DNA of 64,000 nucleotides from Chloroflexota bacterium (GCA_963663275.1 OY760183.1:128001-192000); one strand, 5' to 3'. Numbered from the stretch's first letter, positions 3,746-61,657 are shown. Numbers and translations: made by a program. The notes: generated from the sequence alone by a model not told the origin.

Positions 3746-3906
3746 GCTGATAGGGGTATGTACTTCAAAATAGACTTTACCTGTCATTCCGAACGGAGCG
3801 GAGCGAAGAGTCGCTAAGAGCGCGGAATCTAAGGCATGGCCCTGCGGGATCAACACTTCTAGATTCCTCGCTCCGCTCGGAATGACATTTATGTACCCTT
3901 GTCAGC
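3746..3906. mobile_element. MITE-B copy (TIR GCTGACAGGGGTA) carrying a TGTCATTCCG-type REP pair
   Basis: GCTGATAGGGGTA...TACCCTTGTCAGC enclosing TGTCATTCCGAACGGAG...CTCCGCTCGGAATGACA. Confidence 0.75.
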
Positions 3907-3919
3907 CCAAGAAAGGGAA

Positions 3920-4711
3920 CTACCGCCAGGCTCCCTGCCGCGCCGTCTCGCACTCGGCCAGCACGCGGGCCATGTTGCCGTAGAGAATCTTCTCCTTATC
4001 CGCGGTGGAGAGGTCCGCGCCCAGCACCTTGGCAAGCTGGGAGGGAAAGGAGCGCCCGGGCATGTCGGTGCCAAAGATCACGCGCTCCGCGCCGGCGTGA
4101 TCCACGAGAATCTGCACGCCGCCGGCGTTGCACTCGTTGCCGGCGATGTCCAGCAGGACGTTTGGCGTGCTCCGGAAGACTTTCGCGCCGTATTCGTAGT
4201 CGCCGCCGGCGTGGGCGGCGATGATGGTGGCGTCCGGGTGGCGGCGCGCCAGGTCGGCCACCATCTCCGGGGGCGACTCGCCGTAGCCGAGGCCGTCCGC
4301 CTTCAACCACGTATGCTGCAGGGCCGGCGCCCGGTAGCGCGCGCAGATGTCCACCAGCCGGTCCACCCGCGCGTCGTCGCAGGGCAGCGCGTGCCACAGC
4401 TTGAGGCCCACAAAGCCTTGCGTTGTCAAGCGCCGTTCCAGTTCCGCCGCCGCAGCGTCCCCATGATAAGGATTCACGTAGCAGAAGCCGCGCACCCGCG
4501 CCGGGTAGCGTTGCATCAGCGCGTAGGTCTCGTCGTTGCACCGGGCGCAGAACTCCGGCGTGGGAAAGGCGTCGCGCGAGGCGGCCGCCACCGGACGAAT
4601 GGCGTACGTCACCAGCACGGCGTCGAACTGCTCCGCAATCTCGATCTGCTGCGCGAAGTCGTCCAGCGACCTGCCAACGTCGGTATGAACGTGAACGTCG
4701 ATGATGGGCAT
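3920..4711 (-). CDS. Amidohydrolase_2 family metallohydrolase
   Basis: IIDVHVH, GLKLWH, IIAAHAGG, VIFGTDMP, ILYGNMAR; the longer ORF-track start reads through repeat DNA. Confidence 0.85.
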   Translation of the reverse strand: MPIIDVHVHTDVGRSLDDFAQQIEIAEQFDAVLVTYAIRPVAAASRDAFPTPEFCARCNDETYALMQRYPARVRGFCYVNPYHGDAAAAELERRLTTQGFVGLKLWHALPCDDARVDRLVDICARYRAPALQHTWLKADGLGYGESPPEMVADLARRHPDATIIAAHAGGDYEYGAKVFRSTPNVLLDIAGNECNAGGVQILVDHAGAERVIFGTDMPGRSFPSQLAKVLGADLSTADKEKILYGNMARVLAECETARQGAWR

Positions 4712-4782
4712 TGCCTTGCCATACACTATCAAGAAAGCCTGTATACGATCTTCTTCGAGCATACGTGCAATATACAATAGAG

Positions 4783-4951
4783 GCCGTTCGTGTCGAGCCT
4801 GCCTGGCCTTGGCCTCCTGCCGTTTGCGCTGAGCCTGTCTGGCCTTAGCCTCCTGCCGTTCGTGCTGAGCCTGTCGAAGCATGAGCGGCAGGGGGCGTGT
4901 ACCGCCGTTCCCGCCACGTTCACCCTTCGACAAGCTCAGGGCGAACGTGGC
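4783..4951. repeat. CCGTTCGTGCTGAGCCTGTCGAAG-type REP pair with two upstream 36-bp partial tandem copies
   Basis: Three CCGTTYGYG..GAGCCTG starts at 36-bp spacing, then inverted CTTCGACAAGCTCAGGGCGAACG. Confidence 0.8.
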
Positions 4952-4997
4952 TCTTTCAAGAAATCACCATCTACAATTGGCGCTCACGCTGAGGCGC

Positions 4998-5960
4998 TTA
5001 CCCGGAGGCGCTCACGCGCTCCCGCCAGTAGTCCAGCGTATTTTGCAGGGTCTGTTCCAGGGGTATCGCGGCGCGCCAGCCGGTTTGCCGTTGGAACGCG
5101 CGTGGATCCGCCCGCAGCGCCGGGGCGTCGCCGGGCCGGAAGAGCGCCGGATCCGTCTCCACGCGCACCTCCACCCGCGTCAGGCGCAGCATCATCCCCA
5201 GCATCTCGTCAATCGAGCGCGCCGCGCCGGAGCCGATCGTGTACACCGCGCCGGGCGTCCCTTTCTCCAGCGCCAGCCAGTAGGCGACGGCCACGTCGCG
5301 CACGTCGGTAAAGTCGCGCCGGGCGCTCATGTTGCCCACTTTCAGCGTGGGCGGCTGCAAACCCGCCTCCATCCGCGCCAGTTCCCGCGCGAAGCGGGCG
5401 ATGACGAAGTCCGGCGCCTGGCGCGGGCCGATGTGGTTGAACGGCCGCGCGCGCACGCTGGACAACCCGTGGCTCTGGCCATACTGCACCGCCAGCATCT
5501 CCTGTCCCACCTTGCTCACCGCGTAGGGGTCGGCGGGGCGCAGCGGCACGTCCTCGCTCACCGGCAGGTCTGCCTCCTCCACCATACCGTAGACGCTGCT
5601 GGAACTCACCACCAGCAGGCGGGCCGCCGGCGCGTGGGCGCGCATGGCCAGGATGACGTGCAGTTGGCCCAGGATGTTGGCGCTGAGGGTGGCGGCCGGG
5701 TCGCGCCACGCGGTCGGCACGTGCGCCTGGGCCGCCAGATGGAAGACTCTCTCCGGCTTGATTGCCGCCAGCGCGGCGTTCACGGCGGCCTCGTCGGTCA
5801 TGTCCGCCGCGTAGAGGTGCACGCGCTCGCCCAGGTGCGCCAGGCGCCGATGCGGCCCCGGCGTGTGCGCCAACCCCCACACCTCAACCCCCCGCGCCAG
5901 GCAGGCATCCGCCAAATGGCTGCCCGCAAAGCCGGTAATGCCGGTAATCAGTACGCGCAT
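4998..5960 (-). CDS. GDP-mannose 4,6-dehydratase/Rmd-like NAD-dependent epimerase (extended SDR)
   Basis: ITGITGFAGSHL, HLAAQ, YAVSK, RPFNHIGP, RDFTDVRD. Confidence 0.85.
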   Translation of the reverse strand: MRVLITGITGFAGSHLADACLARGVEVWGLAHTPGPHRRLAHLGERVHLYAADMTDEAAVNAALAAIKPERVFHLAAQAHVPTAWRDPAATLSANILGQLHVILAMRAHAPAARLLVVSSSSVYGMVEEADLPVSEDVPLRPADPYAVSKVGQEMLAVQYGQSHGLSSVRARPFNHIGPRQAPDFVIARFARELARMEAGLQPPTLKVGNMSARRDFTDVRDVAVAYWLALEKGTPGAVYTIGSGAARSIDEMLGMMLRLTRVEVRVETDPALFRPGDAPALRADPRAFQRQTGWRAAIPLEQTLQNTLDYWRERVSASG

Positions 5961-6006
5961 GGGGAGCGGCTCTTCGCAAAATACGCGGCGGTGAATTCCT
6001 GCGGCG

Positions 6007-7623: not shown

Positions 7624-9561
7624 TCACAGCCTCTGCGCCTGGTAGAGGTCTTGGAAGAGGCCCGGCTGTGCCAGCAGCGCCTGGGGGCTGCCCTCTTGGA
7701 CCAATCTGCCTTCATCGATCACCAGGATCGTATCGGCGCGCATCACGCCGACCAGCCGGTGCGCCACCACGACGGCGGTGCGCCCGCGCCGGGCCGTCTC
7801 CAGCGCGGCGCGCACCTTCTGGTCGGTCAGCGCGTCCAGGGCGGACGTGGCCTCGTCCAGCAGGAGGATGCGCGGCTGCGCGAGCATAGCCCGGCAGAGG
7901 GCCAGGCGCTGGCGTTCGCCGCCGGAAAGCGCCAGGCCGCGTTCGCCCACCAGCGTCTCGTAGCCGTCCGGCAGCGACGCTACGAAGTCGTGCAGTTGCG
8001 CCGCCTGGGCCGCCGCGACCACCCGCGCGCGTGGGATGTCGCGGGCCGGGTAGACGAGGTTCGCGGAGATCGTGTCGTTCCAGAGGAAGACGTCCTGCGG
8101 CACGAGGCCGATCATGCCGCGCAGGCTCGCCAACGGCAGCGCCGCTATGTCCTGGCCGTCAACGCGAATAACGCCGGAGTGAGGTTCGTAGAAGCGCAGC
8201 AGCAGGTCGATGATGGTGCTCTTGCCGCCGCCGCTGGGACCGACGACGCCAATGAACGCGCCGGGCTCGGCCCGAAATGAGACGCCCTCCAGGCCGAAGC
8301 CGTCGCGGCCGTAATCGAACGAGACATCCGCGAATTCTATGGCGGCGCCGCCGCTCGCTAGATTCGCGCGCTTGGCTGCCGCCGGGCCCGCATCCGCTCG
8401 TACTTCGACAGGCTCAGCACGAACGGATGCTGCCGGGCCTGCCTCCGGGACGGACGCTTCTGCCTTCGTATGCAAGTGAGGCTCCGCGCGGCCTGCGCCT
8501 CTCGCCCCGTCAGCGGTAGCCCGCCCCGCCAGGGCCGCGGCTTGCGGCCAGGCGCGCGTGGTATCCGGCGCTGCTGGCGGCGCCTCCTCTTGCGGCAGGG
8601 CGAGCAGCGCGTCGATGCGCTCGGCCGCGGCTTTGGCCTGGCCGGCGCCCACGTGGCCTTCCAGGATAGCTTCCATCGCAACGTACGCGCGTTGCGTATA
8701 CAGGATGAAGGCCACCAGACCGCCAATGCTGAGCCGTCCGTTGATGACCTCATACGCGCCGTAGCCGTACACCAGACCGAGCCCGACCTGCTCCGTCAGC
8801 TTCAGCGGCAGTTTCAACACCAGGTTGTGGAACGTAATGCTCTTGGCTTTGATGCGCCACTGGACTTTCAGCCATTCCAGCCAGCGGGCCGCTTCATAGG
8901 GCGCGGCGACGTGGGCGCGCACGGCACGCATACCGGGAATCACATCCTGCAGGTAGTTCATACCGTCTTCTCGAATGCGAATGAACTCCCGGTCCAGACG
9001 TTCCGCATACCGCCGCATCCATTCGGCAATGAGATAGCAGACCGGCACGGCAACCAAGCTCACCAACAGCAGGCGGCCGTTGAGATAGAACATGACGCCC
9101 ACCGTGCCCAACAAGAGCACGGCGTTGGTGAACATAGGCAGCAGTTCATTGCTCACGTACACCTCGCCAATCTCGCCGCACACCTTGGTGAGCGTGCGGA
9201 TGATGCGGCCGCTGGCGATGCGCTCCAGATCCTTCATGCGCACGTACAGCAGGTGATTGAAGAGCGCCTGCCGGAGCGATTGCGAGACCGCCTCGCCAAT
9301 GCTGGCGCGCAGATAGTTCTGCGCCGCGCCGAGCGCCATGGTCAAGAGCGGAAAGCCGATGATGCCGACCAGCAGCAGCACGATGAGCCAAATGTCCTTG
9401 GCGGGAATGGCCTGGTCGATGAGGCGCTTGACCAGCAGCGGCGAGACCAGGCTGACGCCGGCGCCCAAGACGACCAGCGCGATGATGCCCGCCAGCAGGC
9501 TGAGGCGCGCCCGCAGTTGCCGCTTGACGACATGGTAGGTCCGGTTGATGCCTGCGCTCAT
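7624..9561 (-). CDS. ABC exporter, fused permease/ATP-binding protein
   Basis: N-terminal TM domain; GPSGGGKS, LSGGERQ, LLLDEATS, VAHR; unusually long linker contains a REP. Confidence 0.9.
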   Translation of the reverse strand: MSAGINRTYHVVKRQLRARLSLLAGIIALVVLGAGVSLVSPLLVKRLIDQAIPAKDIWLIVLLLVGIIGFPLLTMALGAAQNYLRASIGEAVSQSLRQALFNHLLYVRMKDLERIASGRIIRTLTKVCGEIGEVYVSNELLPMFTNAVLLLGTVGVMFYLNGRLLLVSLVAVPVCYLIAEWMRRYAERLDREFIRIREDGMNYLQDVIPGMRAVRAHVAAPYEAARWLEWLKVQWRIKAKSITFHNLVLKLPLKLTEQVGLGLVYGYGAYEVINGRLSIGGLVAFILYTQRAYVAMEAILEGHVGAGQAKAAAERIDALLALPQEEAPPAAPDTTRAWPQAAALAGRATADGARGAGRAEPHLHTKAEASVPEAGPAASVRAEPVEVRADAGPAAAKRANLASGGAAIEFADVSFDYGRDGFGLEGVSFRAEPGAFIGVVGPSGGGKSTIIDLLLRFYEPHSGVIRVDGQDIAALPLASLRGMIGLVPQDVFLWNDTISANLVYPARDIPRARVVAAAQAAQLHDFVASLPDGYETLVGERGLALSGGERQRLALCRAMLAQPRILLLDEATSALDALTDQKVRAALETARRGRTAVVVAHRLVGVMRADTILVIDEGRLVQEGSPQALLAQPGLFQDLYQAQRL

Positions 9562-9914: not shown

Positions 9915-10577
9915 AGACGCAGGTTACAAACCTGCGCTACCGGACGCCGGCGGTTGGACGCAGGTTGCAAACCTGCGCTACCCAGATATGGGGATGCTCC
10001 CCACCGTAGCGCGGGAGCTTGTCCCCCGCCTCTTCGCACACAGAGGGCTAACTCACGCTACCGGACGCAGGTTTCAAACCTGCGCTACCCGGAAATGGGA
10101 ACGCTTTCCCATCGTTGCCCGGGGGCTTGTCCCCCGCCGGTTCGTGTCATTCCGAGCGCAGCGAGGAATCTGGAGTTCATACTGTAACGAACCCTGGATT
10201 CCTCACTGCGCTCCGCTCCGTTCGGAATGACAGGTGTTCAAGGCGCGCGGGTGTGTCCCCACCGATGCCGCGCAAACGTAGCGCGGGGGCTTGTCCCCCG
10301 CCTCTTCGCACCCAGGGGCCTAACTCACGCTACCGGACGCAGGTTACAAACCTGCGCTACCCAGAAATGGGAACGCTTTCCCATCGTTGCCCGGGGGCTT
10401 GTCCCCCGCCGGTTCGTGTCATTCCGAGCGCAGCGAGGAATCTGGAGTTCATACTGTAACGAACCCTGGATTCCTCACTGCGCTCCGCTCCGTTCGGAAT
10501 GACAGGTGTTCAAGGCGCGCGGGTGTGTCCCCCAACGTTGCCGCGCAAACGTAGCGCGGGGGCTTGTCCCCCGCCTC
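9915..10577. repeat. REP mosaic including a ~272-bp tandem duplication
   Basis: Units start at GTAGCGCGGG 10006, 10278, 10551; each contains three REP families. Confidence 0.9.
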
Positions 10578-13074: not shown

Positions 13075-13233
13075 CAATGCTGCCGCATTAATCCCGTGCC
13101 CAAACCGTTCGCCCTGAGCCTGGTCGAAGGGTGAGCGGCTTGGGCACGGAGTCGTCCGTCTCAACAACGTAGGGGCACGGCATGCCGTGCCCCTACGTTG
13201 TTGCTCGCTAATGTGCGGTGCGGGGCGCCATCG
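13075..13233. mobile_element. MITE-C copy (TIR CAATGC...) with 11-bp target duplication
   Basis: CCTCCTCACCT|CAATGCTGCCGCA...GCGCCATCG|CCCCCTCACCC; cargo is two REP hairpins; right TIR degenerate. Confidence 0.6.
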
Positions 13234-13265: not shown

Positions 13266-13414
13266 GTTGACAGGGGTAGGCAACTGTCATTCCGAGCGGA
13301 GCGAGGAATCTAGAGTTGCTGGAATTACGGGTCCCCCCTCTAGATTCCTCTCTCCGCTGCGCTCCGCTCGGAATGACATGCTAAGCCGGCTCAAGTTTGC
13401 CTACTCCTGTCGGC
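13266..13414. mobile_element. MITE-B copy with 9-bp target duplication in a CCCTCTCCC hairpin
   Basis: CCAGGGAGA|GTTGACAGGGGTAGGCAA...TTGCCTACTCCTGTCGGC|CCAGGGCGA. Confidence 0.8.
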
Positions 13415-43218: not shown

Positions 43219-43223
43219 ATTCC

Positions 43224-50710: not shown

Positions 50711-51211
50711 ATGAATCGCGATCGCAAGCAGCCGCGCTCCCGCCGGCCGCCTCCCCCGCGGGGCGCCCGCAAGCGGCGCCTGCACCGGGAGGTTTCCGCC
50801 GGCGGCATCGTCTACCGCGAGGAGAACGGCGGTTTGGGCGTGCTGGTGACGCAAAGCAGCGCCCACGACGGCTGGATCTTCCCCAAAGGCCACCTGGAAC
50901 ACGGCGAAACGGCCACCGACGCCGCGCTGCGGGAAGTGAAGGAGGAAACCGGCGTGGACGCCCGCATCGTGGAGCGCGTGGGCGCGATCCGCTACGTCTT
51001 CCGCGCCCGGGGCCGGCAGGTAGCGAAAACCGCCCAGTTCTACCTGATGGAGTACGCCGGCGGCAGGACCAACGACGCCAGTCCCGAGGTGAACGCCGTG
51101 CTGTGGGTGCCGGAAGAGCGGGTGACGAGCACGCTCAGCTTCGCCAACGAGGCCGCGCTCTGGGCTAAGGCGCGAGGTCTGCTACAACAGCGGCGAGCGC
51201 GCTCCGCGTGA
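50711..51211 (+). CDS. NUDIX hydrolase
   Basis: FPKGHLEHGET..DAALREVKEETG Nudix box; 3' end overlaps the convergent tsaC gene. Confidence 0.88.
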   Translation: MNRDRKQPRSRRPPPPRGARKRRLHREVSAGGIVYREENGGLGVLVTQSSAHDGWIFPKGHLEHGETATDAALREVKEETGVDARIVERVGAIRYVFRARGRQVAKTAQFYLMEYAGGRTNDASPEVNAVLWVPEERVTSTLSFANEAALWAKARGLLQQRRARSA

Positions 51212-51794
51212 GCGCCCCTTCACGCAGAATGCGCGCCGGCCGCACTGTGCAGTCTATCACGGTGGAAGGCGCGCTGCCGGCCGCCGGGCCGCCGTCCAGG
51301 ATCAGGTCTACCGCCGCGCCCAATTGCTCCCACACTTCTTGCGCCGTGGTGGCGGACGGCTGGCCGCTGCGGTTGGCGCTGGTGCCGGTGATGGGCACGC
51401 CGGCCGCCGCCAGCAAGGCGCGGCTGGCCGCATGGTCCGGCTGGCGCGCGCCCAGCGTGGTATCGCCGAGCAGCGGCGAGAGTCGCGGCCGCTTGGGCAG
51501 GACGATCGTGAGCGCGCCGGGCCAGAAGGCCGCCATCAGCCGCTCCGCGTCCGGCGAAATGCTTGTGACGAGTTCAGCCAGTTGCGACCGCTCGCCAATG
51601 AGCGCCGGCATGTGCTTCTCTTCCGGCCGCCGCTTGGCCGCCGCCACCTTCTCCGGCGCCCCCGGCAGAAAGACGTTCGCCCCCAACCCGTACACCGTGT
51701 CGGTGGGATAAGCGACGATGCCGCCGCCAAGAATCACGTCCGCCGCGCGCCGGATGGCGGCGGGATCGGATGTGCTGAGAATGCGCTCTTTCAT
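51165..51794 (-). CDS. tsaC: L-threonylcarbamoyladenylate synthase (YrdC/Sua5 family)
   Basis: YPTDTVYGL, K.R, FWPG.LT, TSAN.SG, STVID, ILREG. Confidence 0.9.
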   Translation of the reverse strand: MKERILSTSDPAAIRRAADVILGGGIVAYPTDTVYGLGANVFLPGAPEKVAAAKRRPEEKHMPALIGERSQLAELVTSISPDAERLMAAFWPGALTIVLPKRPRLSPLLGDTTLGARQPDHAASRALLAAAGVPITGTSANRSGQPSATTAQEVWEQLGAAVDLILDGGPAAGSAPSTVIDCTVRPARILREGALTRSALAAVVADLAP

Positions 51795-51933
51795 TGCTCT
51801 TGCGCGAGTGCTTACGCGCCCTTTCAAGCGCCGGCTAAACGCTCACTAAACGCCTTGCAAACGCCCTCGCTTCACAGCCCTCCCTAATTTGTGCCGTTGA
51901 TGGATATTCAAGATTGCCTTTGCCACACCGGTA

Positions 51934-52247
51934 GAGATCTTTGCATAACTCCGTCATACAGGTGAAAGCCCCCCCGGTGTGGGGGCGCAGAATCCAGGGA
52001 GTTCTTACAACTAAAGACAGCATGAAGTCAAGCCATTCCACCGCCATCCCAACCTTCCCTCTCGAGGGCTGACAGGGGTAGGCATTCTACATCCGACTTC
52101 ACGTGTCATTCCGAGCGGAGCGCAGCGGAGAGAGGAATCTAAGGCTTTCGCTGCAAAAACGTCGGTTCTAGATTCCTCGCTCCGCTCGGAATGACACTTG
52201 CCTACCCCTGTCAGCCCTCGAGGGGGAAGGGGCTATGCAAGGGTCTC
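51934..52247. mobile_element. MITE-A with nested MITE-B (52068-52215)
   Basis: GAGATCTTTGCATAAC...GCTATGCAAGGGTCTC; inner CCTCGAGG|GCTGACAGGGGTAGGCA...TGCCTACCCCTGTCAGC|CCTCGAGG. Confidence 0.88.
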
Positions 52248-52265
52248 AGCAAACGCGGGCATCCC

Positions 52266-53126
52266 TCACACCGGCTCGCTCGTCCGGTTGATGCGCGCCA
52301 TGATCTCCGAGAGGCGCGACCAGTTTTGCAGCGTCATGGGAAGCACCAACGCGGATTCAACGAACTCCCACGAATAGCTGATGATAGAGAAGATCCTGCC
52401 GACCGTCACGGCCACGTACGCTGCCGCGAACCAGAGATTGAACACGATCAGTCCCAGCAGCACCGTATAGATCGCGCCGTAGACGTAGGCCTCCGTATCT
52501 GACAGCCTGATCTGGATCCGGCGCAGTCTCTGCAAATAGGAGAGAATGCCCACGGGCGACTGTGATTCCAGAAAGCGGACCTGCTGCTCCGTCTGCTGGT
52601 TATAGGCGGCGTTCAGCCGGTAGAAGCGCTTATGGGAAAGTGCGTAGAATCCGATCATCAGCACGGCGGCCGCGAGCGTTGCCAGGAACAAGACGGGATG
52701 AAAGGCGTACAGCACAATCAGCGCAATAATCAACTGCACCACGGACGCCATCACCGCCGGGGCCTCTTCCTCCAGGAAGTCGACCAGCTCGCGGCTCATC
52801 TCCAGTCTGGCGTTCAGCGTGGAAACCGGTATTCCCGCCGAGCGTCCGGTCAAGGCTTCACCGAGTTTGACCCCGATTGTGCCGTAGACGCGCGTATCGT
52901 ATAAGCGGCGCACGACGCTCACGCCAATCAGCGCGGCCAAGACCCCGGCCAGCCGCAGGAGCGCCGTCGGGTCGTCGGCCAGGAGGCCGTCAATGGCGAG
53001 TCCGATGAGCAACGGCGTAAACGCCGTCAGCGCCGTCTCGCAGAGCATGAGGAACCAGGTCAAGCTGATCGGGCGCAAGAACGTCCGCAGCAGCACGCCA
53101 ATGGTGAGCGGCTGATCCTGCAGCAT
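52266..53126 (-). CDS. Stand-alone ABC six-transmembrane domain protein
   Basis: PLLIG.AID.L, RR.YDTRVY, SRELVDFLE, RLSD.EA; no ATPase domain. Confidence 0.65.
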   Translation of the reverse strand: MLQDQPLTIGVLLRTFLRPISLTWFLMLCETALTAFTPLLIGLAIDGLLADDPTALLRLAGVLAALIGVSVVRRLYDTRVYGTIGVKLGEALTGRSAGIPVSTLNARLEMSRELVDFLEEEAPAVMASVVQLIIALIVLYAFHPVLFLATLAAAVLMIGFYALSHKRFYRLNAAYNQQTEQQVRFLESQSPVGILSYLQRLRRIQIRLSDTEAYVYGAIYTVLLGLIVFNLWFAAAYVAVTVGRIFSIISYSWEFVESALVLPMTLQNWSRLSEIMARINRTSEPV

Positions 53127-53138
53127 GGCGCGCGTTCC

Positions 53139-53957
53139 CTAGGCGTTCAGCACGTGCTTCTCGATAGCCACCGCCACGCCGTCTTCCTCGAACGCGGCGG
53201 TGACGAAGTCCGCCGCCGCCTTCACGCGCGGGGCGCCGTTGCCCATCGCCACGCCGAAGCCGGCGGTGCGCACCAGGCTCAGGTCGTTCAGGTTGTCGCC
53301 AATGCCCATCACCTGCGCCAGCGGCACGTCCAGCGCCTCGGCGAGTTGCGTCAGGGCGCGTCCCTTGTTCACGTCCGGATGAATCGCCTCGGTGTAGTAG
53401 GGGTGGGACTTGGTGATGCCCAGGCGGCCGCCAAAGTGGGCGCTGAGTTCCTCGACCAGGCGGTCGGTCTTGTCTTCATCGAGATTCACCAGCACCAGCT
53501 TGCTGGAGGGATTGTCCGCCAGGAAGTCCGCCAGGTCCGGCACCACGGTGGCCTCCACGTTGGCAATGCGCATGTAGACCTCCGCTTCCGGCGTCAGGGA
53601 TTCCACGTGCAGGCGGTCGTCCACGAAAGCGTTTACCTGGATGCGCCGCGCCCGCGCCAGTTCCACCACCTCCCGCGCCAGCGCCGTGGGCACGGCCAAA
53701 TGGAAAGTCGTCTCGCCGCTCACCGGATGGCGCACCAGCCCGCCCTGGTAGCAAATGAGCGGGGCGGTGATGTTAAGCTCCTGGGCAAAGGGGACCATGG
53801 CCGCGAACATGCGCCCGCTGGCCAGGGTGACCGTCACGCCTTGCGCCTGGGCCGCGGCGATGGCCCGCTTGACGCGCGGCGCGATGGTGAGCCGCTCGTC
53901 GATGAGCGTGCCGTCCAGGTCGATGGCGATCAGCCGGATTTCGCGAGCGGCGCTCAT
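53139..53957 (-). CDS. Cof-type HAD-IIB hydrolase
   Basis: DLDGTL, ASGR, NKG, GDNLND, AMGN. Confidence 0.92.
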   Translation of the reverse strand: MSAAREIRLIAIDLDGTLIDERLTIAPRVKRAIAAAQAQGVTVTLASGRMFAAMVPFAQELNITAPLICYQGGLVRHPVSGETTFHLAVPTALAREVVELARARRIQVNAFVDDRLHVESLTPEAEVYMRIANVEATVVPDLADFLADNPSSKLVLVNLDEDKTDRLVEELSAHFGGRLGITKSHPYYTEAIHPDVNKGRALTQLAEALDVPLAQVMGIGDNLNDLSLVRTAGFGVAMGNGAPRVKAAADFVTAAFEEDGVAVAIEKHVLNA

Positions 53958-54790
53958 GCGTACAGCCCCCGCACGATGTCCATGTTGGCTTGGTCGGGAC
54001 CCTTGTCGTCGAACCCGGGCACTTCCAGCACGGCGCAGGTGTCGCTCAGCGCCTCATGGTTGACGATGTAACGGAACGCTTCCAGCCCGATGTGGCCTTC
54101 GCCGATGTTCTCGTGGCGGTCCCTCTGGGCGTTGAACGGGACTTTGGAGTCGTTGAGGTGGAAGGCGGCCAGACGCTCCAGCCCGAATTCCGCGTCGATT
54201 TCCGCCAGCATGGCGTCGAAGCCCTCCGCCGTCTCCACGTGATAGCCGGAGGCGAAGGCGTGGGCGGTGTCCACGCAGAGCTTGATGCGCTCGTGGTTGC
54301 CGCACGCGCGCAGGATCGTGCCCAGGTCGGCGAAGTTCGAGCCGATGTTGCCGCCGGAACCGGCGCTATTCTCCAGCAGGAGCGGCACGCTGTCCGAGGC
54401 GTCCAGCGCCGCGCCGATGGCGGCCTCGATCCGCGGCAAGGCCTGGTCGAGACCGTCGCCCATGTGGCTGCCGACGTGGGTAATGACGCCGGCGGCGCCA
54501 AGCAAGTCGCCCGTTTGCAGTTGGAACGTGAGCGTCATCACCGACTTTTCGTAGTTTTCCGGCTTGGGCGAGCCGGTGTTGATGAGATACTGGGTGTGGA
54601 AATAGGCGGGCATGGGGGTTTCGGCGTTGGCGGCCTTGTAGGCGGCCACGTGCTCGTCCTTGGGCAGCGCGCGCTGCCAGCCGCGCGGGTTGGCGCTGAA
54701 GATCTGCATGCATTCGCACCCCAGGTCCGCGGCCCGGGCAAACGCGGTGGCAATGCCGCCGGTGGTGCGCACGTGGGCGCCAAGTCGCAT
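53954..54790 (-). CDS. nfo: Endonuclease IV
   Basis: GAHV, H..YLIN, ENSAG, DTAHAF, HLNDSK, DRHENIG. Confidence 0.93.
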   Translation of the reverse strand: MRLGAHVRTTGGIATAFARAADLGCECMQIFSANPRGWQRALPKDEHVAAYKAANAETPMPAYFHTQYLINTGSPKPENYEKSVMTLTFQLQTGDLLGAAGVITHVGSHMGDGLDQALPRIEAAIGAALDASDSVPLLLENSAGSGGNIGSNFADLGTILRACGNHERIKLCVDTAHAFASGYHVETAEGFDAMLAEIDAEFGLERLAAFHLNDSKVPFNAQRDRHENIGEGHIGLEAFRYIVNHEALSDTCAVLEVPGFDDKGPDQANMDIVRGLYA

Positions 54791-54851
54791 AGATGTATCC
54801 CTTCGTGAACGTTACTGGAGGGGAAAGACGGTCGGGCGGTTGACTGTGACC

Positions 54852-54887
54852 ATTATAGCAAAGCCGGAGTTGCGGTGACGCTATAAT
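54852..54887. promoter_or_regulatory. Back-to-back TATAAT -10 boxes for nfo (-) and the AAA/VWA genes (+)
   Basis: Minus strand TGCTATAAT (54852-54860) and plus strand TATAAT (54882-54887) in a GC-rich background. Confidence 0.5.
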
Positions 54888-54949
54888 GTGGAGTGAGGGT
54901 TTGGCCGCCGGCGCCACGGTGGCATTTGCCGGTGGCGGCAAGAGGCGGG

Positions 54950-55240
54950 GATGGCAACCGGTCACGTAGGGGCGGTTCGCGAACCGCCCCTACCGCACGG
55001 CACGATGCGGAGGACGAGCACCCGCCCAACGGGAGCGGCCCGGCCCTCGGGTAGCCCGGCCCTCCGGTAGCGCAGGTTTGTAACCTGCGTCCGTTGCGCT
55101 GGCGGGGGACAAGCACCCGCGCTACGTGTCGTGTTGGAGAATCATAAGGGCGGGAGAGGCAACCGGTCCCCGTAGGGGCGGTTCGCGAACCGCCCCTACC
55201 GCACGGCGCAATGCGGGGGACAAGCCCCCGCGCTACGAAA
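54950..55240. repeat. REP cluster (GTAGGGGCGGTTCGCGAACCGCCCCTAC twice, plus two other families)
   Basis: Perfect palindromes within a duplicated ~55-bp context. Confidence 0.85.
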
Positions 55241-55307
55241 TCTATGCTGAACGGGAAACCATGATGCGATTCCGGGCCTTGAAGGCGCGAAGGAGAGATG
55301 CGGCTAC

Positions 55308-57761
55308 ATGCGGAACATCTTGAGCGGTCTCCTGGGCGGTCGTGACGAGGATGACGTTACGCTAGCGGAACGTCCGGCGCAGCGCGACCCCGCCGACGCC
55401 GGCGGGCTGTTGCGCGACCTGGGCGGCGGCGTACTGCTCTACGAGCATGCGTTCGTCCTCGGCGCCGGCGCCTACCGCCGCCGCCAGCCGCCGCTCTCCC
55501 TGGAACTGGAGCGCGGCGAGGACACGGCCTACGGCGACGTTCCCAGCCAGTTCGACGGCTGGGACGGCGCGCGCAGCTTTGCCGGCGCCGTGCCCCGGGA
55601 GCGCGAGGTCTTTCGCCACTGCACGCCCCGCATGACCGCGACCCTGCGGCAGATGGCGCACGTGTTGCGCGGCGCGTCCGCCAACCCTTCCCTGTTGCTC
55701 ACCGGGCCCACCGGCTGCGGCAAGACGACCCTGGCCAAGACCTTCTGCTACCTGGCAAACGAGCCGTGCGTCGAAATCACGTTCAGCGGCGATACCGCGC
55801 TCAGCGATTTCTACCAGTCGGTGGAGGTCGTCACCCAGGCCGGCAGCCAGGCGCACAGCACGGCCACCGTGCTCGGCCCGGCGGTGGACGCCATGCTCAC
55901 CGGCAAGAAACTGCTGCTCAACGAGGTGAACATCATTCCCCAGGACCTGCTGAGCGTCTTCACCCAGGCGCTGGACGCGCGCCAGGTGACGCTCTCCGGC
56001 AGCGAGTGGGGCAACGTGACCGTGCCGGTGCATCCGCAATTCGGCGTCATCGCCACCGCCAACCCCAACTATACCGGCACGCTGGAAATCGGCGTCACGT
56101 GGGAACGGCGCTTTGGTCACGGCACCGGCAACGTGGCCATGGACTTCCTGCCGCCGGAGGAAGAGGCCGAGGCCGTGGGGCATGAACTGCGGCGCGTGGC
56201 GGCGGTGGCGCAAGTGGGCGCTATGCCGCCAAGCGAGGCGTGCGCGGCGGTGGCCGCGGCGGCCGCGGCACTGCGCAGCCACCCGGAACTCGGCGGCATC
56301 ATGCGCGACCGGGTTTCCACCCGTTCATTGGTGCACTGGCTCAGCGTGTGCGCGCTGACGGGGTTTGCGCTGGCGGCGGTGGCGCGGGACGCCGTCCTCA
56401 CTCTGGCGCCGCCGGAAGCGCGGCAGGAGGCCGCCGACCTCATCGAGAAGACGCTGCGCGGCGTTACCTGGCCGGCCCGCGCCCAGCGCCGGGTGAGCGG
56501 CGTGCTGCTGCCGGAGATCACGGTACCGGAGGAGAGCGTGGTCCCGCTGGCAGGCGTGGCCGAGGCGCGCCTGCCCTTCGCGCCGCCCGCCGACGAAACA
56601 GGCCGGGACGGCGGCCTGGAGCACGAGGTCTACCAGCCGCTGGAAAGCGATGCGCCCGGCGGACAACCGGCGCTGGCGCGTTACCGTTGCACGCTGCCCG
56701 ACGGCGCCCGCCTGGAACTGCGCGAACCGCTCTACACCTGGGACGGCAACCCCATGGCCCTGGGCCTGCGCCTGCGGGCGTGGGATCCAAACGGGTTCGA
56801 GATTACGGAACCGGCGCGGCTGGAGGCGCTGGAGGCGGAGTTGGGCGACACCTACGGCGTCACGGTGCCCCGGCCGATCGGCAACATACCCTCCGGCGGC
56901 GCGGCGCTGCCATGCCTGACCCGCTCCGGTTGGACCGCGCTGCGCCTGCTGGAGGCGGCCCTGGCGCTGGACCGTCCGGTCTATATCAAAGGCCCGCCCG
57001 GCAGCGGCAAGTCGGCGCTGGCGCGCACCCTGGCCCGGCTGCGGCAGACGCCGCTGGTGGAACTCTCGTTTACGGGCGAGACCTCCAAGCACGACCTGCT
57101 CGTCAGCCGCCGCCTGCGCACGGGTGAGACCCAGTGGACGGTGCAGGCCTTCCTGGAAGCGGTGCTGAAGGGCTACCTGGTGCTGGTGAACGACTACAAC
57201 CTGGCCTACTCGGACGTGCACTCGCTCCTGAACAGTCTCTTCGACAAAGGGCGGCGCGTTACGCTGCCGGACGGGCGCACGGTGACGGCGCACCCGGGCT
57301 TTCGTCTGGTTGCCACCGGGCAGCCGGAAGGCCCGGGCGTGAAGCCGCTCAACGAGGGGGTGGAGAATCGCTTCGGCGCGATTCTGGAACTGGCGTACCC
57401 CTCGGCCGGCGAGGAACTGGCAATCCTGGGCAACGTGGGACGCGGCCTGCCCGCGCCCACGCTGCGCGCGGTGGTGGATTTCGTGGGTCAATGCCGCCGC
57501 TGGGCCGCCGGCATGGCGCCCGCGGACGTGGAACAGGAGGCGATCTGGCAGGACGCGGTCTCGCCTGAGTTGATCGCGTCTGTGGCGGCGGCCGGCAACT
57601 GGAGCACGGCGGAACTGGTGGCCCTGGCGCGGGACGCGGACGACGGCGCGGCCCTGGTGGCACGGTTCCAGGAGGGCGTGCTCTCGGCGGCCGCCCCCGC
57701 CACCCGCCGCATCCTGGAGGCGCTGCTGCTGCAATATAACGTGACCACGGAAGCGCCGTAG
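55308..57761 (+). CDS. Tandem double AAA+ (AAA_5/MoxR-CbbQ-like) ATPase
   Basis: Two Walker A motifs (GPTGCGKT, GPPGSGKS), VHPQF..IATANP and AHPGFRLVATGQP, RRF/NRF; RBS AAGGAG. Confidence 0.85.
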   Translation: MRNILSGLLGGRDEDDVTLAERPAQRDPADAGGLLRDLGGGVLLYEHAFVLGAGAYRRRQPPLSLELERGEDTAYGDVPSQFDGWDGARSFAGAVPREREVFRHCTPRMTATLRQMAHVLRGASANPSLLLTGPTGCGKTTLAKTFCYLANEPCVEITFSGDTALSDFYQSVEVVTQAGSQAHSTATVLGPAVDAMLTGKKLLLNEVNIIPQDLLSVFTQALDARQVTLSGSEWGNVTVPVHPQFGVIATANPNYTGTLEIGVTWERRFGHGTGNVAMDFLPPEEEAEAVGHELRRVAAVAQVGAMPPSEACAAVAAAAAALRSHPELGGIMRDRVSTRSLVHWLSVCALTGFALAAVARDAVLTLAPPEARQEAADLIEKTLRGVTWPARAQRRVSGVLLPEITVPEESVVPLAGVAEARLPFAPPADETGRDGGLEHEVYQPLESDAPGGQPALARYRCTLPDGARLELREPLYTWDGNPMALGLRLRAWDPNGFEITEPARLEALEAELGDTYGVTVPRPIGNIPSGGAALPCLTRSGWTALRLLEAALALDRPVYIKGPPGSGKSALARTLARLRQTPLVELSFTGETSKHDLLVSRRLRTGETQWTVQAFLEAVLKGYLVLVNDYNLAYSDVHSLLNSLFDKGRRVTLPDGRTVTAHPGFRLVATGQPEGPGVKPLNEGVENRFGAILELAYPSAGEELAILGNVGRGLPAPTLRAVVDFVGQCRRWAAGMAPADVEQEAIWQDAVSPELIASVAAAGNWSTAELVALARDADDGAALVARFQEGVLSAAAPATRRILEALLLQYNVTTEAP

Positions 57762-57902
57762 CGCGGGGGCTTGTCCCCCGCCTGCATTGCGAACGCAGGT
57801 TACAAACCTGCGCTACCGGACAACCGAACCATCATCGTAGCGCGGGGGCTTGTCCCCCGCATCAGAACGTGCGGTAGGGGCGGTTCGCGAACCGCCCCTA
57901 CG
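57758..57902. repeat. REP cluster between the AAA and VWA genes; first REP overlaps the AAA stop codon
   Basis: CC-GTAG-CGCGGGGGCTTGTCCCCCGC, then three more REPs. Confidence 0.88.
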
Positions 57903-57951
57903 TGGGGCAGTTGCCTCCCACAGTAGTGAGAACGCGATAGTTAGGGGAACC

Positions 57952-59949
57952 ATGGCATCCACCGGAACGGCGAACGCGGCGGCGCGGGCGGAGGCCCGCG
58001 TGCGCGAAACGCGCTACACCCACGGCGAGGTGGTGGCGCTGGCGCGCCTGATCCTGCGCGACGCGCGCCTGAACGTCGTCTCCGGCAGCGAGTGGGCCTA
58101 CATTGCCCGGGGGCGCACCCTGACCTATCCGGCGCGGGTGCTGCACACCTGGCCCGGCACCAGCGTCGTCGGCGCGATCTGCCAGCAGATGGCGGAAGCC
58201 CAGCACACCGGCGAGATGGGCGCGCGGGCGCTCCAGAGCTTTGCCCGCATCGCGCCGCTGGCGTTCGCCGACGTCATGCCGTTCGCCCGCTTCGTGAACG
58301 AACTGCGCGTGAACCGCATGCACCTGGAACGCCGCCCCGGCTCGGCGCGCTTCCTGCGTGCGCTCTATGCCGACAATCCGCAATGGTCGTCGGTCCGGCG
58401 GCGCAGCACCCCCCTGCGGGAGCAGGTGCAGCAGGGCCTGCTGGACCGCTGGCGCGGCGAAGTGTGGCCGGAGAGCGCGGGCGCGCCGGAGATTGGCGGC
58501 ACGGCGCGCCGCTACGTGGACGTGCTCTGGCCCGGCGTGCGCGACGCGCTGCTGCGTGATTCCCTGCCGCAGATGCTGGACGTGCTCTCCCGCCGCATGC
58601 TGCCGCTGCTGGACGACCTGGTGGCGGAAGACGCCCGGCGCGCCCGGGACCGGCCGGAAACCGAACGGCCCACGCCTGAAGAAGACCCCGACGCGGAGGA
58701 TGCGGCCGAGGTTCTGGGAGAACTGCGCATCGAGGCGGGTAACGCCGCCGACGCCGGCTCGTCCGCCAAGCGGGAAGAGACTGGGATGCAGGATCCTGAG
58801 GCCCCCACGGCGGACGCCGACCCGGTGCCGGCTTCCCCGGAAGAAGACGGCGGCCCGGCCAAAGTGGAGGGCGGCCCCAACGAGCAGTCCGAGTTGCGCC
58901 AGGACGACGACCCGGCCGCGCGGCGGCGCGACCGCCCGCAAGGCCCGCCGCGCCTGATCGACCCGCGCATGTTCAAGGCGCGGCCCGGCGCGCTCAATCC
59001 CATGCCGCGCACCATCGTGCAGGGCCTCGGCGCGCGGCCGGCCGCGCCCAAGACGGACTACGAAAACTTCGACTACCGCGCGGCCGCGCGGCGGCTGGAA
59101 CCGGCGATCCGCCGCTCGCTGGACGGCGAGGCCGGCCGGCGGGGTCTCAAGGAGATCATGATGCGCCGCCGCTTTGGCACGGTGGAACCGGGGCGGCGCC
59201 CCCGCCGCCGGCGCGGCGGCGACAGCGGCGAAATCGATACCGACCACGTGGAACGCCTGGTGGTCGCGCCGGAACAGGCCTTTCTCAAGGGCGTGCGCGC
59301 GCCCCGGGCGGACCACCAGAAGGACTTTGCCGCAATCATCCTGATGGACGTCAGCGGCAGCATGGTGGCGAAAGGCTACTCCACGCGCAAGTTCGACCAC
59401 ACCGTGGACGCCGCCATCATCTTCTCCGAAATCCACGAGCGGCTGCGCATCCCCTACCAGATGATGGCGTTCTCCGAGGAGGTCTGGAACCTGCGCGCGT
59501 TCGACGAATGCCGGTTCGCGACCCAGGTGGTGGCCAACGAGCGCACCTACACGCCGCCGGACCTGAGCGGCGTCTTCCGCGCGATGTACGAGCAGCCCCA
59601 CAAGAAGACGGACGACGCCGGCGCTCTGCGCCAGGCGGTGGCGGACGTGCAGCAGCAGAAGGGATTCAAGACTATACTGGTCTTAACCGACGGCATCTCG
59701 TCCAACCGGCGCAAACTGCAAGAGGTGCTGCTGGGCGTGGAACGGCGCAACGGCATGATGAGCGCCGGCGACGGCCTGGGTATCATCGTGTTTGGCATCG
59801 GCGTGCCCGGCGACGCGCTGCATGAGTCCTACGTGGGACAGGCCGGCGGCAAATTCCTGCGCTGCCTGCAAACGGTGGTGGTTCCCGACGTGGCGCGGCT
59901 GCCGCGCATGATACAGACGACGATCGAGCGCCGCATTCGCGGCGTATGA
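57952..59949 (+). CDS. VWA (MIDAS) domain protein, CobT/NorD/CbbO-like architecture
   Basis: Helical N-domain, acidic low-complexity linker, DVSGSM, T, LTDG, IVFGIG. Confidence 0.82.
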   Translation: MASTGTANAAARAEARVRETRYTHGEVVALARLILRDARLNVVSGSEWAYIARGRTLTYPARVLHTWPGTSVVGAICQQMAEAQHTGEMGARALQSFARIAPLAFADVMPFARFVNELRVNRMHLERRPGSARFLRALYADNPQWSSVRRRSTPLREQVQQGLLDRWRGEVWPESAGAPEIGGTARRYVDVLWPGVRDALLRDSLPQMLDVLSRRMLPLLDDLVAEDARRARDRPETERPTPEEDPDAEDAAEVLGELRIEAGNAADAGSSAKREETGMQDPEAPTADADPVPASPEEDGGPAKVEGGPNEQSELRQDDDPAARRRDRPQGPPRLIDPRMFKARPGALNPMPRTIVQGLGARPAAPKTDYENFDYRAAARRLEPAIRRSLDGEAGRRGLKEIMMRRRFGTVEPGRRPRRRRGGDSGEIDTDHVERLVVAPEQAFLKGVRAPRADHQKDFAAIILMDVSGSMVAKGYSTRKFDHTVDAAIIFSEIHERLRIPYQMMAFSEEVWNLRAFDECRFATQVVANERTYTPPDLSGVFRAMYEQPHKKTDDAGALRQAVADVQQQKGFKTILVLTDGISSNRRKLQEVLLGVERRNGMMSAGDGLGIIVFGIGVPGDALHESYVGQAGGKFLRCLQTVVVPDVARLPRMIQTTIERRIRGV

Positions 59950-60134
59950 ATGAGAAATCATTCGGTCCGGTAGCCGTTCGCGGTGAGCACGTCGAACCGT
60001 GAACGACCCTTCGACAGGCTCAGGGCGGACGGGGAAGTAGGTTTGGGGCGAACGGAGGAGCAGGTCTGGGGCGAACGGATGACACTACGTGGCAGAATCT
60101 TTGCAAACATCCTCTGGGTGAAAAGGAGTGTGCG

Positions 60135-60905
60135 GTGAGGCCCGGTATCCAGCGCAATGATAGCGACCAACTGCCGTGGGGTATGCGCGCGGTGTTGCTG
60201 GTGTGGTTGCTCTGGCTCGTGTTAGCGTTCATTGGCCGGACGCTGCTCGACCTGTACGTAGCGTTCGCGCCGCTGCGCTACCTGGGCGGCGCCAGCCCAC
60301 TGACGTTGCGCGGCACCAGCCTTGCTCCCGGCTACATGGTCGCCGGTGTGTTGCTCGTCCCCATACTCGTCGCGGCCGCCATTGCCTTGCGCCTGGTGGC
60401 GCGCCGCTACGCCGGCGCTCCCCTGGAGGCGCTGGCGTTTACGCGGCTGAATCCCGTGTGGATGTTGGCGGCGGTGGTGCTGGTGGGCGTGCTGCTGGCG
60501 TTTCTGCTGCGGTTCGCCCTGGGCTGGTCGAACTACCCGCTGCCGCTGCTGGAGCCGCCCGCCGGCTTCTTCTCCGCGCTCGACGTGGCGCTGTACTGCG
60601 TGAGCGTGCCGCTCACGGCGCTGCTGGCGGGGGCGCTGGTATTTGGATTCTGCTATCCGGCGCTGGTGGGGCGCTTGGGCGTCTGGCCAGGCGGGTTCGC
60701 CTGCGCCGTAGGCTTCGCGCTGCCGCAACTTGCCGCCCAGGGCGTCTACTGGCAACCGGCGGCGGCGCTGCTGGCGATGGGAGCTTACCTGACCGCGGTG
60801 CGCTGGCGCGCGGATTCGGCCTACACCGCTACGCTGGGCTATACCGGCGTTGCCGTCTATCTCGCGCTCTCGGCGGCCGTGTCGGAAATGGCCGCGGCGG
60901 CATAA
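60135..60905 (+). CDS. CPBP/Abi-like membrane protein, catalytic motifs absent
   Basis: 7-8 TM; layout resembles CPBP (F.L.Q, Y..R.R.DS) but no EExxxR or His motifs. Confidence 0.5.
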   Translation: MRPGIQRNDSDQLPWGMRAVLLVWLLWLVLAFIGRTLLDLYVAFAPLRYLGGASPLTLRGTSLAPGYMVAGVLLVPILVAAAIALRLVARRYAGAPLEALAFTRLNPVWMLAAVVLVGVLLAFLLRFALGWSNYPLPLLEPPAGFFSALDVALYCVSVPLTALLAGALVFGFCYPALVGRLGVWPGGFACAVGFALPQLAAQGVYWQPAAALLAMGAYLTAVRWRADSAYTATLGYTGVAVYLALSAAVSEMAAAA

Positions 60906-60917
60906 ACTCGAACCGTT

Positions 60918-61022
60918 TTGCCGACGACCCCGGCCACTTGGCCGAAGGCCCTGGCCGCCTGGCCGACGACCCCGACCGCTTGGCCGAAGGCCCTGGAACC
61001 TGGCCGAAGACCCCCGGCCGCC
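60918..61022. repeat. Five ~21-bp tandem repeats (TGGCCGA.G.CCC.GGCC) with a 42-bp higher-order period
   Basis: Units at 60918, 60939, 60960, 60981, 61001. Confidence 0.85.
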
Positions 61023-61432
61023 TAGCCGTCGGCGTGCTGCCAGAGATAGCGGCCGGTAGCGCAGGCCACCACCACAAAGAGCGGATCGATAATCGCCCAG
61101 ATGGTCTGGCTGACGACGCTCTGCGCGTCAGTCTCCAGGTTCAGGAAGTCGAACCAGTTCCAGAAGAACCACAGGGCCAACAAGAGGGTTATCCACAAGG
61201 CCGCGTTGGCCGCCAGGCGCGCGGATCCGCTGGCTTCATCAGCGGCGCGCACGCGCCGCGCGTGCACCCCCAACGCCGCCACGATGCCCACGGCCATGAA
61301 CCAGTCCAGCACACCCCACACCGCGATGGGATCGACGACCTCCCGATAGAATGACGAAAACATGAAGTGCGCCGCCACCACCAGGGCTGCGGCCATGAGA
61401 TACACCGCAAGCGCCTTCTTTGCCACGTCCAT
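61022..61432 (-). CDS. Hypothetical 4-TM membrane protein
   Basis: Four hydrophobic segments; RBS GAAAGGA. Confidence 0.65.
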   Translation of the reverse strand: MDVAKKALAVYLMAAALVVAAHFMFSSFYREVVDPIAVWGVLDWFMAVGIVAALGVHARRVRAADEASGSARLAANAALWITLLLALWFFWNWFDFLNLETDAQSVVSQTIWAIIDPLFVVVACATGRYLWQHADG

Positions 61433-61487
61433 GCGCGCCGTTCCTTTCTATAGTCGAAACCCACTTCGTAGCGCGGAGGCTTATGCT

Positions 61488-61657
61488 CAAAGCCGTCGCA
61501 TTAACTTCTGACTCAGGTAACCACGGCGAATCCGCGCTCTTAATGCGCTTCACCTGGGGTCAACGCGGTGTAGGGGCACGACATGTCGTGCCCCTACACC
61601 GCGTGCCAAGCCGTGTAGAGGCTCTTAGTCGTGACCTCCACTTTTGCGACAGCATTG
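61488..61657. mobile_element. MITE-C copy (reverse orientation) in a degenerate GTAG REP
   Basis: GTAGCGCGG-AGGCTTATGCT|CAAAGCCGTCGCA...TGCGACAGCATTG|AAACTCGTACC. Confidence 0.8.

Follow-up and report, generated by a model that had tools for sequence, protein, structure and literature searches.

How can a compact bacterial genome come to hold stacks of small repeats placed one inside another? The question is raised by a 64,000-nucleotide stretch of DNA, here called the window (bases 128001 to 192000), from the one-contig genome of a Chloroflexota bacterium (GCA_963663275.1, OY760183.1; 3,531,182 bp, about 66% G+C), in which three families of short elements with distinct inverted ends, A, B, and C, occur together with repetitive extragenic palindromic (REP) sequences and other hairpin repeats. 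A sequence-only reading of the window had proposed that these elements are MITEs (miniature transposable elements bounded by inverted repeats) of the DDE type, which carry REP hairpins as cargo, insert into other hairpins with target duplications, and nest in several layers, and that REPs may spread by hitch-hiking inside them. We followed this proposal through the whole genome, counting each family by its end-motif matches and taking adjacent plus and minus matches as a pair. The window and its genome very probably harbor a layered community of cut-and-paste DDE elements in intergenic DNA, each with a particular hairpin repeat whose loop it enters.

Results

The A, B, and C elements are MITEs with target duplications of fixed length

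In the window, the A motif GAGACCTTTGCATAAC gave 4 matches at two or fewer mismatches where 0.02 were expected, and the B motif GCTGACAGGGGTA gave 9 matches at one or fewer mismatches where 0.06 were expected. The A matches form two pairs, one of which encloses a B copy, and a truncated third copy and a variant are also present; B is represented by four complete copies and four one-ended or degenerate ones (one of them at 43060), and C by three complete copies and three variants (one of them at 13075), all other coordinates being collected in Table 1. When the window was compared with the rest of its own genome, 40 window segments were found to recur at least five times elsewhere, nearly all of them intergenic, and no Rfam family scored above threshold in the window. 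Genome-wide, the end motifs gave 309 (A), 309 (B), and 286 (C) matches at the thresholds used, compared with 14, 62, and 82 for control patterns read backwards.

Terminal inverted repeats, the mark of MITE ends, were paired in 99 A, 114 B, and 58 C copies. A consists of 140-bp MITEs (about 50 paired copies) and longer forms, with ends of 16 to 18 bp; B consists of MITEs of 148 to 175 bp, in which the outer end pair surrounds a palindrome that we call F (GTCATTCCGAGCG...CGCTCGGAATGAC); and C consists of MITEs of 162 to 177 bp with ends of 17 to 18 bp. At 140 to 177 bp the elements are below transposase-coding size, and they are present in many copies at unrelated sites. Measured against a single reference copy of the family, 18 B and 5 A copies show an identity of 98% or more, and few C copies reach 95%.

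The lengths of the direct repeats that abut the ends peak sharply at 5 bp for A, 9 bp for B, and 11 bp for C. Exact duplications of 5 bp flank 45 of the 99 A copies (four more have 4 bp and another four 6 bp). Among the 114 B copies, 52 have an exact duplication of 8 to 10 bp, the length being 9 bp in 34 of them, 8 bp in 10, and 10 bp in 8; exact duplications of 11 bp flank 35 of the 58 C copies (one more has 12 bp). With swapped flanks, in which the left side of one copy is set against the right side of another, exact repeats were seen in 1/99 A, 1/114 B, and 7/58 C cases, the C number being higher because the target sequence is common to the C copies. No copy of any family (0/99 A, 0/114 B, and 0/58 C) had both of its 300-bp outer flanks matching those of another copy, which excludes segmental duplication, the alternative that the sequence-only reading had itself named, as the source of these layouts. 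The three end motifs it had located thus stand far above chance in the window and hold across the genome.

Insertions are centered on the loops of particular hairpins

The hairpin most often occupied by A is E, a unit of about 40 bp made up of CCCTCTCCC, a loop of 4 to 5 nt, GGGAGAGGG, and then (TTA or CCG)GGGTGAGGGG, of which 487 unoccupied copies are present in the genome. An E hairpin is the insertion site of 64 of the 99 A copies, mostly in its loop (CCCTCTCCC N4-5 GGGAGAGGG). B enters E in 64 of 114 cases, a hairpin carried by A itself (CCTTCCCC-N6-GGGGAAGG, hereafter the first A hairpin) in 37, and REP1 (GTAGCGCGGGGGCTTGTCCCCCGC) in five; the midpoint of the B duplication is the E loop or the loop of the first A hairpin. 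For C, 44 of the 58 insertions are in REP1 and three in E; the C duplication GGGCTTGTCCC is centered on the REP1 loop, and 35 of the 58 copies use one of two mirror-image 11-mers. When the empty targets were rebuilt, both the A target (CCCTCTCC-CtcaG-GGAGAGGG) and the C target (GCGG-GGGCTTGTCCC-CCGC) were dyad-symmetric about the loop. Tabulation of the flanks throughout the genome therefore bears out the proposal that the elements land in hairpin repeats with target duplications, here of 5, 9, and 11 bp.

For the E element at window 44405-44445, folding as a single strand gave the CCCTCTCCC arm two partners of roughly equal quality, the adjacent GGGAGAGGG arm and a GGGGTGAGGG tail downstream (z-score only -1.5). 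Judged from this folding, E may form two alternative hairpins or a purine/pyrimidine-tract structure.

A and C share their ends with IS5- and IS4-family elements

A survey of the transposases in the genome returned 16 matches to Pfam rve and 5 to DDE_Tnp_1, all belonging to insertion sequence (IS) elements of the IS5, IS4, IS30, and IS481 families; models for IS256 and ISL3 found nothing in the genome. Self-comparison of the genome gave four multi-copy long repeats.

The ends of A are those of a single-copy, 1239-bp IS5-family element (genome 1441994-1443232), which lies in an E hairpin and is bounded by A ends and a CTGAAG duplication. Its transposase matches NF033581 (8.7e-89, 297.6 bits against a cut-off of 140). 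The partner of C is a 1194-bp IS4-family element in four copies, whose ends, CAATG(T/C)TGTCGCATTAA, are the C ends, and whose transposase matches NF033592 (6.7e-46, 156.9 bits against a cut-off of 115). All four copies (4/4) are in REP1 with an 11-bp duplication, and the sequence common to this element and the C MITEs is limited to the 17-18 bp ends. Duplications of 9 to 12 bp are typical of the IS4 family. The view that the MITEs are of the DDE type, bounded by the same ends as a transposase gene, accordingly holds for A and C; for B, no autonomous IS with the same ends was found here. The B-type end was also absent from ten IS4 relatives in other assemblies. B would be moved in trans, by a transposase encoded outside this assembly. 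A single B pair with its ends 600 to 4000 bp apart and a duplication was considered as an autonomous B and rejected, being two separate A+B units.

Relatives of the IS4 transposase (37-80% identity, loci L037-L046) were found in other Chloroflexota and in one Rubrobacteraceae assembly; the assemblies that hold them include Chloroflexota, Chloroflexia, and Thermomicrobiales. In the other Chloroflexota assemblies, these elements have retained the CAATGNTGTCGCAT end and occupy palindromes of the GTAG type. Across L037-L046 the end motif is kept as (C)AATGNTGTCGCAT or AACGCTGTCGCAT, and in several cases the element is inserted in a palindrome of its own genome, of the GTAG type or another. By sequence, these relatives suggest a hairpin-targeting clade of IS4 elements.

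IS30- and IS481-family elements also occupy hairpins

A 1177-bp repeat present in nine copies has the A motif at its ends and an IS30-family transposase. It was considered as the autonomous partner of A and dropped, since it proved to be a composite: the 140-bp A MITE corresponds to its first 41 and last 103 bases, and the IS30-family element is the inner 1037 bp, with its own inverted ends lying within A sequence (transposase NF033563, 2.1e-70, 237.5 bits against a cut-off of 80). The nine IS30 cores are 100% identical, the surrounding A sequences differ from copy to copy, and the element sits at the same nucleotide in 9/9 copies, beside the second A hairpin TTCCGGCGAAAGCCGGAA. Identical cores in differing A copies indicate nine separate insertions. 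By the strict end-pair criterion, seven of the nine lie in an A pair, and A sequence surrounds all nine. For annotation, the 1177-bp repeat is a warning that apparent IS ends may belong to an enclosing MITE.

The remaining family is an IS481-family element of 1.28 kb in seven copies, every one of which (7/7) is in an E hairpin with the duplication GGGAG (transposase NF033577, 1.8e-86, 290.2 bits against a cut-off of 224).

MITE cargo and nesting

Nesting was observed in several combinations. B copies lie inside A pairs in 27 of 114 cases, and two A copies hold a B together with an IS30 element. In four strict cases, the REP1 carried by one C is interrupted by the end of another C or of an IS4 element. 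Stacking goes furthest where F lies in B, B in A, and A in E. The hairpin cargo and multilayer nesting that had been described from the window (REP pair in B in A) are therefore a feature of the genome. Nesting arises because each MITE carries hairpins usable as landing sites: in the mechanism that we propose, the insertion of a MITE would bring hairpins that serve as landing sites for the next element, and stacks would result.

The cargo differs between sub-families. C-162 (31 paired copies) has the layout end, REP1, spacer, inverted REP2, end; C-177 has the same layout with a longer REP2; and C-175, the type seen in the window, carries REP3. A2, a sub-family of A, has the layout end, E, spacer, inverted E, end, and mostly sits in E hairpins. 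A2-like copies were found at 23 loci, and of ten A-type pairs of 200 to 239 bp, nine carry E hairpins and belong to A2. Two unrelated transposon lineages, C-162 (REP1+REP2) and A2 (two E), therefore carry inverted doublets of their own landing site, so that each jump replaces or adds landing sites.

How large a share of the hairpins is MITE-borne? C MITEs contain 69 of the 535 REP1 copies, 44 of 367 REP2, 12 of 134 REP3, and 0 of 60 REP4, and A-type pairs contain 24 of the 487 E hairpins. F alone among the hairpins is mostly carried by MITEs, with 279 of 411 arms inside B. Hitch-hiking occurs, and the sub-families that carry their own target are instances of it; with only 5-13% of the E, REP1, REP2, and REP3 copies in MITEs and a RAYT gene present (see below), the proposal that REPs spread in this way stands in part, hitch-hiking being unlikely as the main route. 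One element of that proposal had to be given up. The hairpins of A that are used by B and by the IS30 element are confined mainly to A: of 69 genomic occurrences of the first, 63 are within A, as are 89 of the 154 occurrences of the second. They are therefore not captured free-living REPs.

A single RAYT gene is flanked by inverted REP1 arrays

RAYT (REP-associated tyrosine transposase) genes flanked by inverted REPs define a REP/RAYT system (Nunvar 2010, PMC2817692, from the accessible text of that paper). Four GTAG-headed palindromes are present here at high copy number: REP1 (535), REP2 (367), REP3 (134), and REP4 (60). The genome has one Y1 transposase gene (a single PF01797 match), which scores 95.9 bits against the curated RAYT model NF047646 (cut-off 80, 1.9e-27). 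Its translation contains HAH and RYVLNNP, which we take to be the motifs expected of a RAYT. Three REP1 copies lie upstream of the gene and four inverted REP1 copies downstream (RAYT genes flanked by cargo REPs were among the things that the sequence-only reading had suggested looking for), and one copy of the IS4 element sits in a REP1 adjoining the gene. With a single RAYT and inverted REP1 arrays, the conventional route is available for the GTAG REPs, and this RAYT probably remains the main mover of the free copies. E does not belong to the REP/RAYT system: it has no GTAG head, no RAYT is flanked by E, and the only Y1 gene is flanked by REP1.

Two further observations concern the GTAG palindromes. 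REP3 (GTAGGGGCACGACATGTCGTGCCCCTAC) occurs in the window at 13169-13196, 19016-19043, 39446-39473, 47239-47266, and 47441-47468 and within C copies at 21811, 45492, and 61570. Its flanks show extra perfect inverted complementarity that is specific to each copy, of at least 4 bp in 88 of 134 copies and up to 17 bp; at REP4, flank complementarity is 2 bp or less in 59 of 60 copies. In 12 aligned C-175 elements, three positions beside REP3 change together on both sides (ACAAGG/CCTTGT, ACGTGG/CCACGT, ACGCGG/CCGCGT, and others), with one mismatched copy. Template switching, in which one arm is copied onto the other, or selection for the hairpin would explain this covariation.

Distribution in the genus

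Among 17 genomes of the genus, full-length A was found in 17/17 and C-162 in 8/17, mainly in G000 and in the closest relative, G011. The 18-mer B end was found in 5/17 (147 matches in G000, 24 in G011, 5 in G009, and a single match apiece in G010 and G014), and the G011 copies of B use the same two hairpin targets, E and the first A hairpin. F occurs in 191 pairs in the genome under study, 40 of them with no B end within 60 bp, and in most genus genomes it occurs without B ends. B is therefore a recent casing for a repeat that is older than itself.

G011 genes are 73-91% identical in nucleotide sequence to those of the window. At three orthologous positions, G011 has repeat-free spacers of 34, 23, and 66 bp where the window has stacks of 299, 632, and 471 bp; either one lineage acquired these stacks or the other lost them. 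Contigs from public sequencing runs end at repeats. In several runs, contigs from sponge metagenomes cover the genes of window positions 40001-60000 at about 95-98% identity (for example, a 2302-base contig with 99 differing letters), and another run gave near-identical contigs over the same genes. Close relatives therefore occur in such samples.

Features of the window and other repeats

The individual copies in the window are listed in Table 1. The G+C content is 0.588 at 28001-32000 and 0.64-0.71 in the rest of the window. A further hairpin family, G (CCGTTCGTGCTGAGCCTGTCGAAG...), has 206 genome copies, often adjoining C-type ends, and occurs in the window at 4849-4950, 8386-8432, 13100-13160, 19200-19330, 21960-22014, 27520-27628, and 48890-48990. 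Elsewhere in the genome, a 1.8-kb repeat (L004) is present in two copies of 98.8% identity (2362897-2364712 and 2905128-2906937) without an open reading frame of at least 150 aa; one copy begins directly after a long REP3-centered palindrome. At genome 779421-795678, 401639-404663, 941288-942708, and 3201292-3202635 there are also long stretches with internal repeats, in tandem or dispersed, that are 73-84% identical; these are probably repetitive genes and are unrelated to the MITEs.

Table 1. Elements and hairpin clusters in the window, by position in the window; G011 is the closest relative in the genus.
Position	Strand	Feature
406-537		Variant A-type MITE, ends GAGACCCGTGCGCAAC / GCGTTGCATAGGTCTC; E hairpin cargo at 446-464
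2679-2816	+	REP cluster: three REP1 (GTAGCGCGGGGGCTCGTCCCCCGC type), then one REP2
3673-3705		E element CCCTCACCC-TAA-CCCTCTCCC, loop GAGAGAG, unoccupied
3746-3906		B MITE, 161 bp, both ends, F inside, between degenerate E-like arms; G011 spacer 34 bp, repeat-free
9917-10574	+	Extensive cluster of REP1 and REP2 that includes two F hairpins standing free (10144-10236, 10416-10508)
13266-13414		B MITE, 149 bp, in E hairpin; 9-bp duplication CCAGGGAGA / CCAGGGCGA with one mismatch
19165-19300	+	One-ended C variant; end CAATGCCTTCGCC abuts split REP1, then G hairpin
21465-21654		B MITE, 190 bp, in E hairpin; whole cluster 21408-22038 corresponds to about 23 bp in G011
21746-21920		C-175 MITE, REP3 cargo (21811-21838), in split REP1
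27472-27675		C variant, degenerate ends, G hairpin cargo, in split REP1
31925-32080		A truncated to its left end; its first hairpin is occupied by a truncated B (31957-32080)
33811-33974	+	B copy entering E hairpin; keeps left end and F hairpin, lacks right end
42779-42918		A MITE, 140 bp, perfect 16-bp ends, duplication CCCAG, in degenerate E hairpin; carries CCTTCCCC-N6-GGGGAAGG and TTCCGGC-N4-GCCGGAA; absent from the 66-bp orthologous spacer of G011
42940-43072		B copy with right end and F hairpin only
44168-44316		B copy, degenerate left end, adjoining E elements 44316-44333, 44415-44432, and 44514-44531
45427-45601		C-175 MITE, REP3 cargo (45492-45519), followed by two E elements
51934-52247		A MITE, 314 bp, with nested B, three layers (F in B in A); outer A junctions without hairpin or duplication
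52068-52215		B MITE, 148 bp, in loop of first A hairpin; 100% identical to three other genomic copies
61488-61657		C-175 MITE, 170 bp, REP3 cargo (61570-61597), left junction in REP1 half

Discussion

The results reported above ascribe the stacks to DDE elements that enter hairpin loops. Could the same placement arise with no choice of site? Random insertion, with purifying selection merely leaving copies in harmless hairpins, would fit the intergenic position of all the elements and the one third of A copies outside hairpins. We nevertheless regard it as very improbable, because the insertions are at the exact center of 4-6 nt loops with symmetric duplications despite the far larger amount of non-hairpin intergenic DNA, because nine identical IS30 cores are inserted at one and the same nucleotide in A copies that have diverged from each other, and because most C duplications are one of two mirror-image 11-mers. 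We infer that the transposases themselves choose hairpins, rather than that selection merely spares such insertions. A different proposal would have the units moved by the Y1 (RAYT) transposase or by recombination between REPs, the ends and duplications being incidental. The REPs are indeed abundant and clustered, and there is one RAYT, but we find this scarcely credible: A and C have exactly the ends of IS5- and IS4-family elements whose duplications and targets are also the same, the copies have no flanks in common, and, according to the accessible text of PMC2817692, Y1 transposases make no duplications of this kind.

It may also be asked whether the REP-type hairpins spread mainly as passengers of the DDE MITEs, the free REPs being decayed MITE remnants. 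The REP1 and REP2 of C-162 and C-177, the REP3 of C-175, and the two E of A2 are what this would lead one to see, as are the many one-ended copies that consist of a C end with REP1 and the position of most F arms inside B. Yet all REP4 copies and the great majority of REP1, REP2, REP3, and E copies are outside MITEs, a RAYT with textbook inverted REP1 flanks is present, and F occurs without B ends in most genus genomes, so that this explanation is unlikely.

Several observations weigh against integration of each DDE element into a specific hairpin loop or narrow what can be claimed for it. No recognizable hairpin was found at 32 of the 99 A, 8 of the 114 B, and 11 of the 58 C insertion sites. 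Exact duplications are present in only 30-60% of the copies, the remainder having decayed, and the symmetry of the targets allows both 9 and 11 bp as the duplication length of B and of C. End motifs outside any detected pair amount to 111/309 for A, 81/309 for B, and 170/286 for C, or about 97, 19, and 88 after subtraction of the chance level; these leftover ends belong to copies that are truncated, have one end only, or have diverged. Listing of all B end motifs in the genome and a search for pairs 600 to 4000 bp apart with a duplication revealed no autonomous B, and none was found in G011, where all seven B sites examined are MITE-sized. The comparison of filled and empty sites, which the sequence-only reading had called for, was realized in part: G011 has spacers without the stacks, but since they lack the target hairpins as well, they do not qualify as precise empty sites. 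For the nested copy at 51934-52247, no orthologous empty site was available, the gene order being conserved in none of the 17 genus genomes, and paralogous A copies with and without B provide the only precise empty-site comparison.

Insertion of DDE elements into hairpin loops has precedents. REP-targeting IS are known in five families, IS3, IS110, IS4, IS256, and IS5 (Tobes and Pareja 2006, PMC1525189; this and the other papers cited here are compared on the basis of their accessible text), with examples such as IS1397 and ISKpn1 (IS3 family), IS621, ISPpu9, and ISPpu10 (IS110 family), and the IS4-family ISRm22, of which 10/10 copies are in REPs; REPs as IS targets are also reviewed by Delihas 2011 (PMC3184786). 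As in those cases, in which all or most copies lie in REP palindromes, every copy of the IS4 element described here is in REP1. Unlike them, most insertions here are MITEs, which themselves carry REPs and are not mentioned in the accessible text of PMC1525189, and five element families in one genome make use of three hairpins, other mobile elements being the carriers of two of the three.

The GTAG palindromes, the single RAYT with inverted REPs, and the inverted doublets resemble the REPIN (REP doublets forming hairpins)-RAYT system (PMC2817692; Bertels and Rainey 2011, PMC3116915). The difference is that the REP1/REP2 doublet described here is enclosed by IS4-type ends and an 11-bp duplication and is fit for a DDE transposase, an enzyme that has no part in the REPIN model as presented in the accessible text of these two papers. 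With the bacterial MITEs Nezha, Chunjie, Correia, and RUP (PMC3184786), the elements share small size, ends in common with an IS (in A and C), direct repeats, strong predicted folding, and the lack of a transposase gene; they differ from them in using structured repeats rather than short simple sites as targets, in carrying their own target as cargo, and in stacking routinely, as in the B copies within A. Thermomicrobium roseum, also of the Chloroflexota, has GTAG repeats within small palindromes (Di Nocera 2013, PMC3733652), and in both organisms GTAG palindromes are embedded in further palindromic sequence, but, unlike the consensus target palindrome described there, the extension of REP3 varies by copy and co-varies on both sides. 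In the open-access literature that we searched, we found no description of MITEs carrying the REP that they target, of nested bacterial MITEs, or of an IS confined to a MITE hairpin. REP-targeting IS have been described before; what this genome adds is a variation, in the MITEs that carry their own target and in how deeply the elements nest.

Beyond integration into hairpin loops as such, we tentatively suggest a further possibility. An IS5-type MITE (A2) and an IS4-type MITE (C-162) may each have captured an inverted doublet of its own landing hairpin, renewing or multiplying its landing pads with each jump, so that DDE transposases propagate REP- or REPIN-like repeats beside the RAYT. Together with B, IS30, and IS481, which would live only in the hairpins of others, these elements may form a self-sustaining web that has endured throughout the genus.

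For the organism, confinement of each element to repeat hairpins away from genes offers an account of how a compact bacterial genome tolerates hundreds of active mobile elements. For REP biology, the doublet-carrying MITEs could provide a concrete route for REP-type repeats to be copied by a different enzyme from their own RAYT. The pairs described here, the IS4 family with REP1, the IS5 family with E, and the IS30 family with a MITE hairpin, are natural combinations of transposase and structured target for studying how DDE enzymes read hairpin or palindromic DNA.

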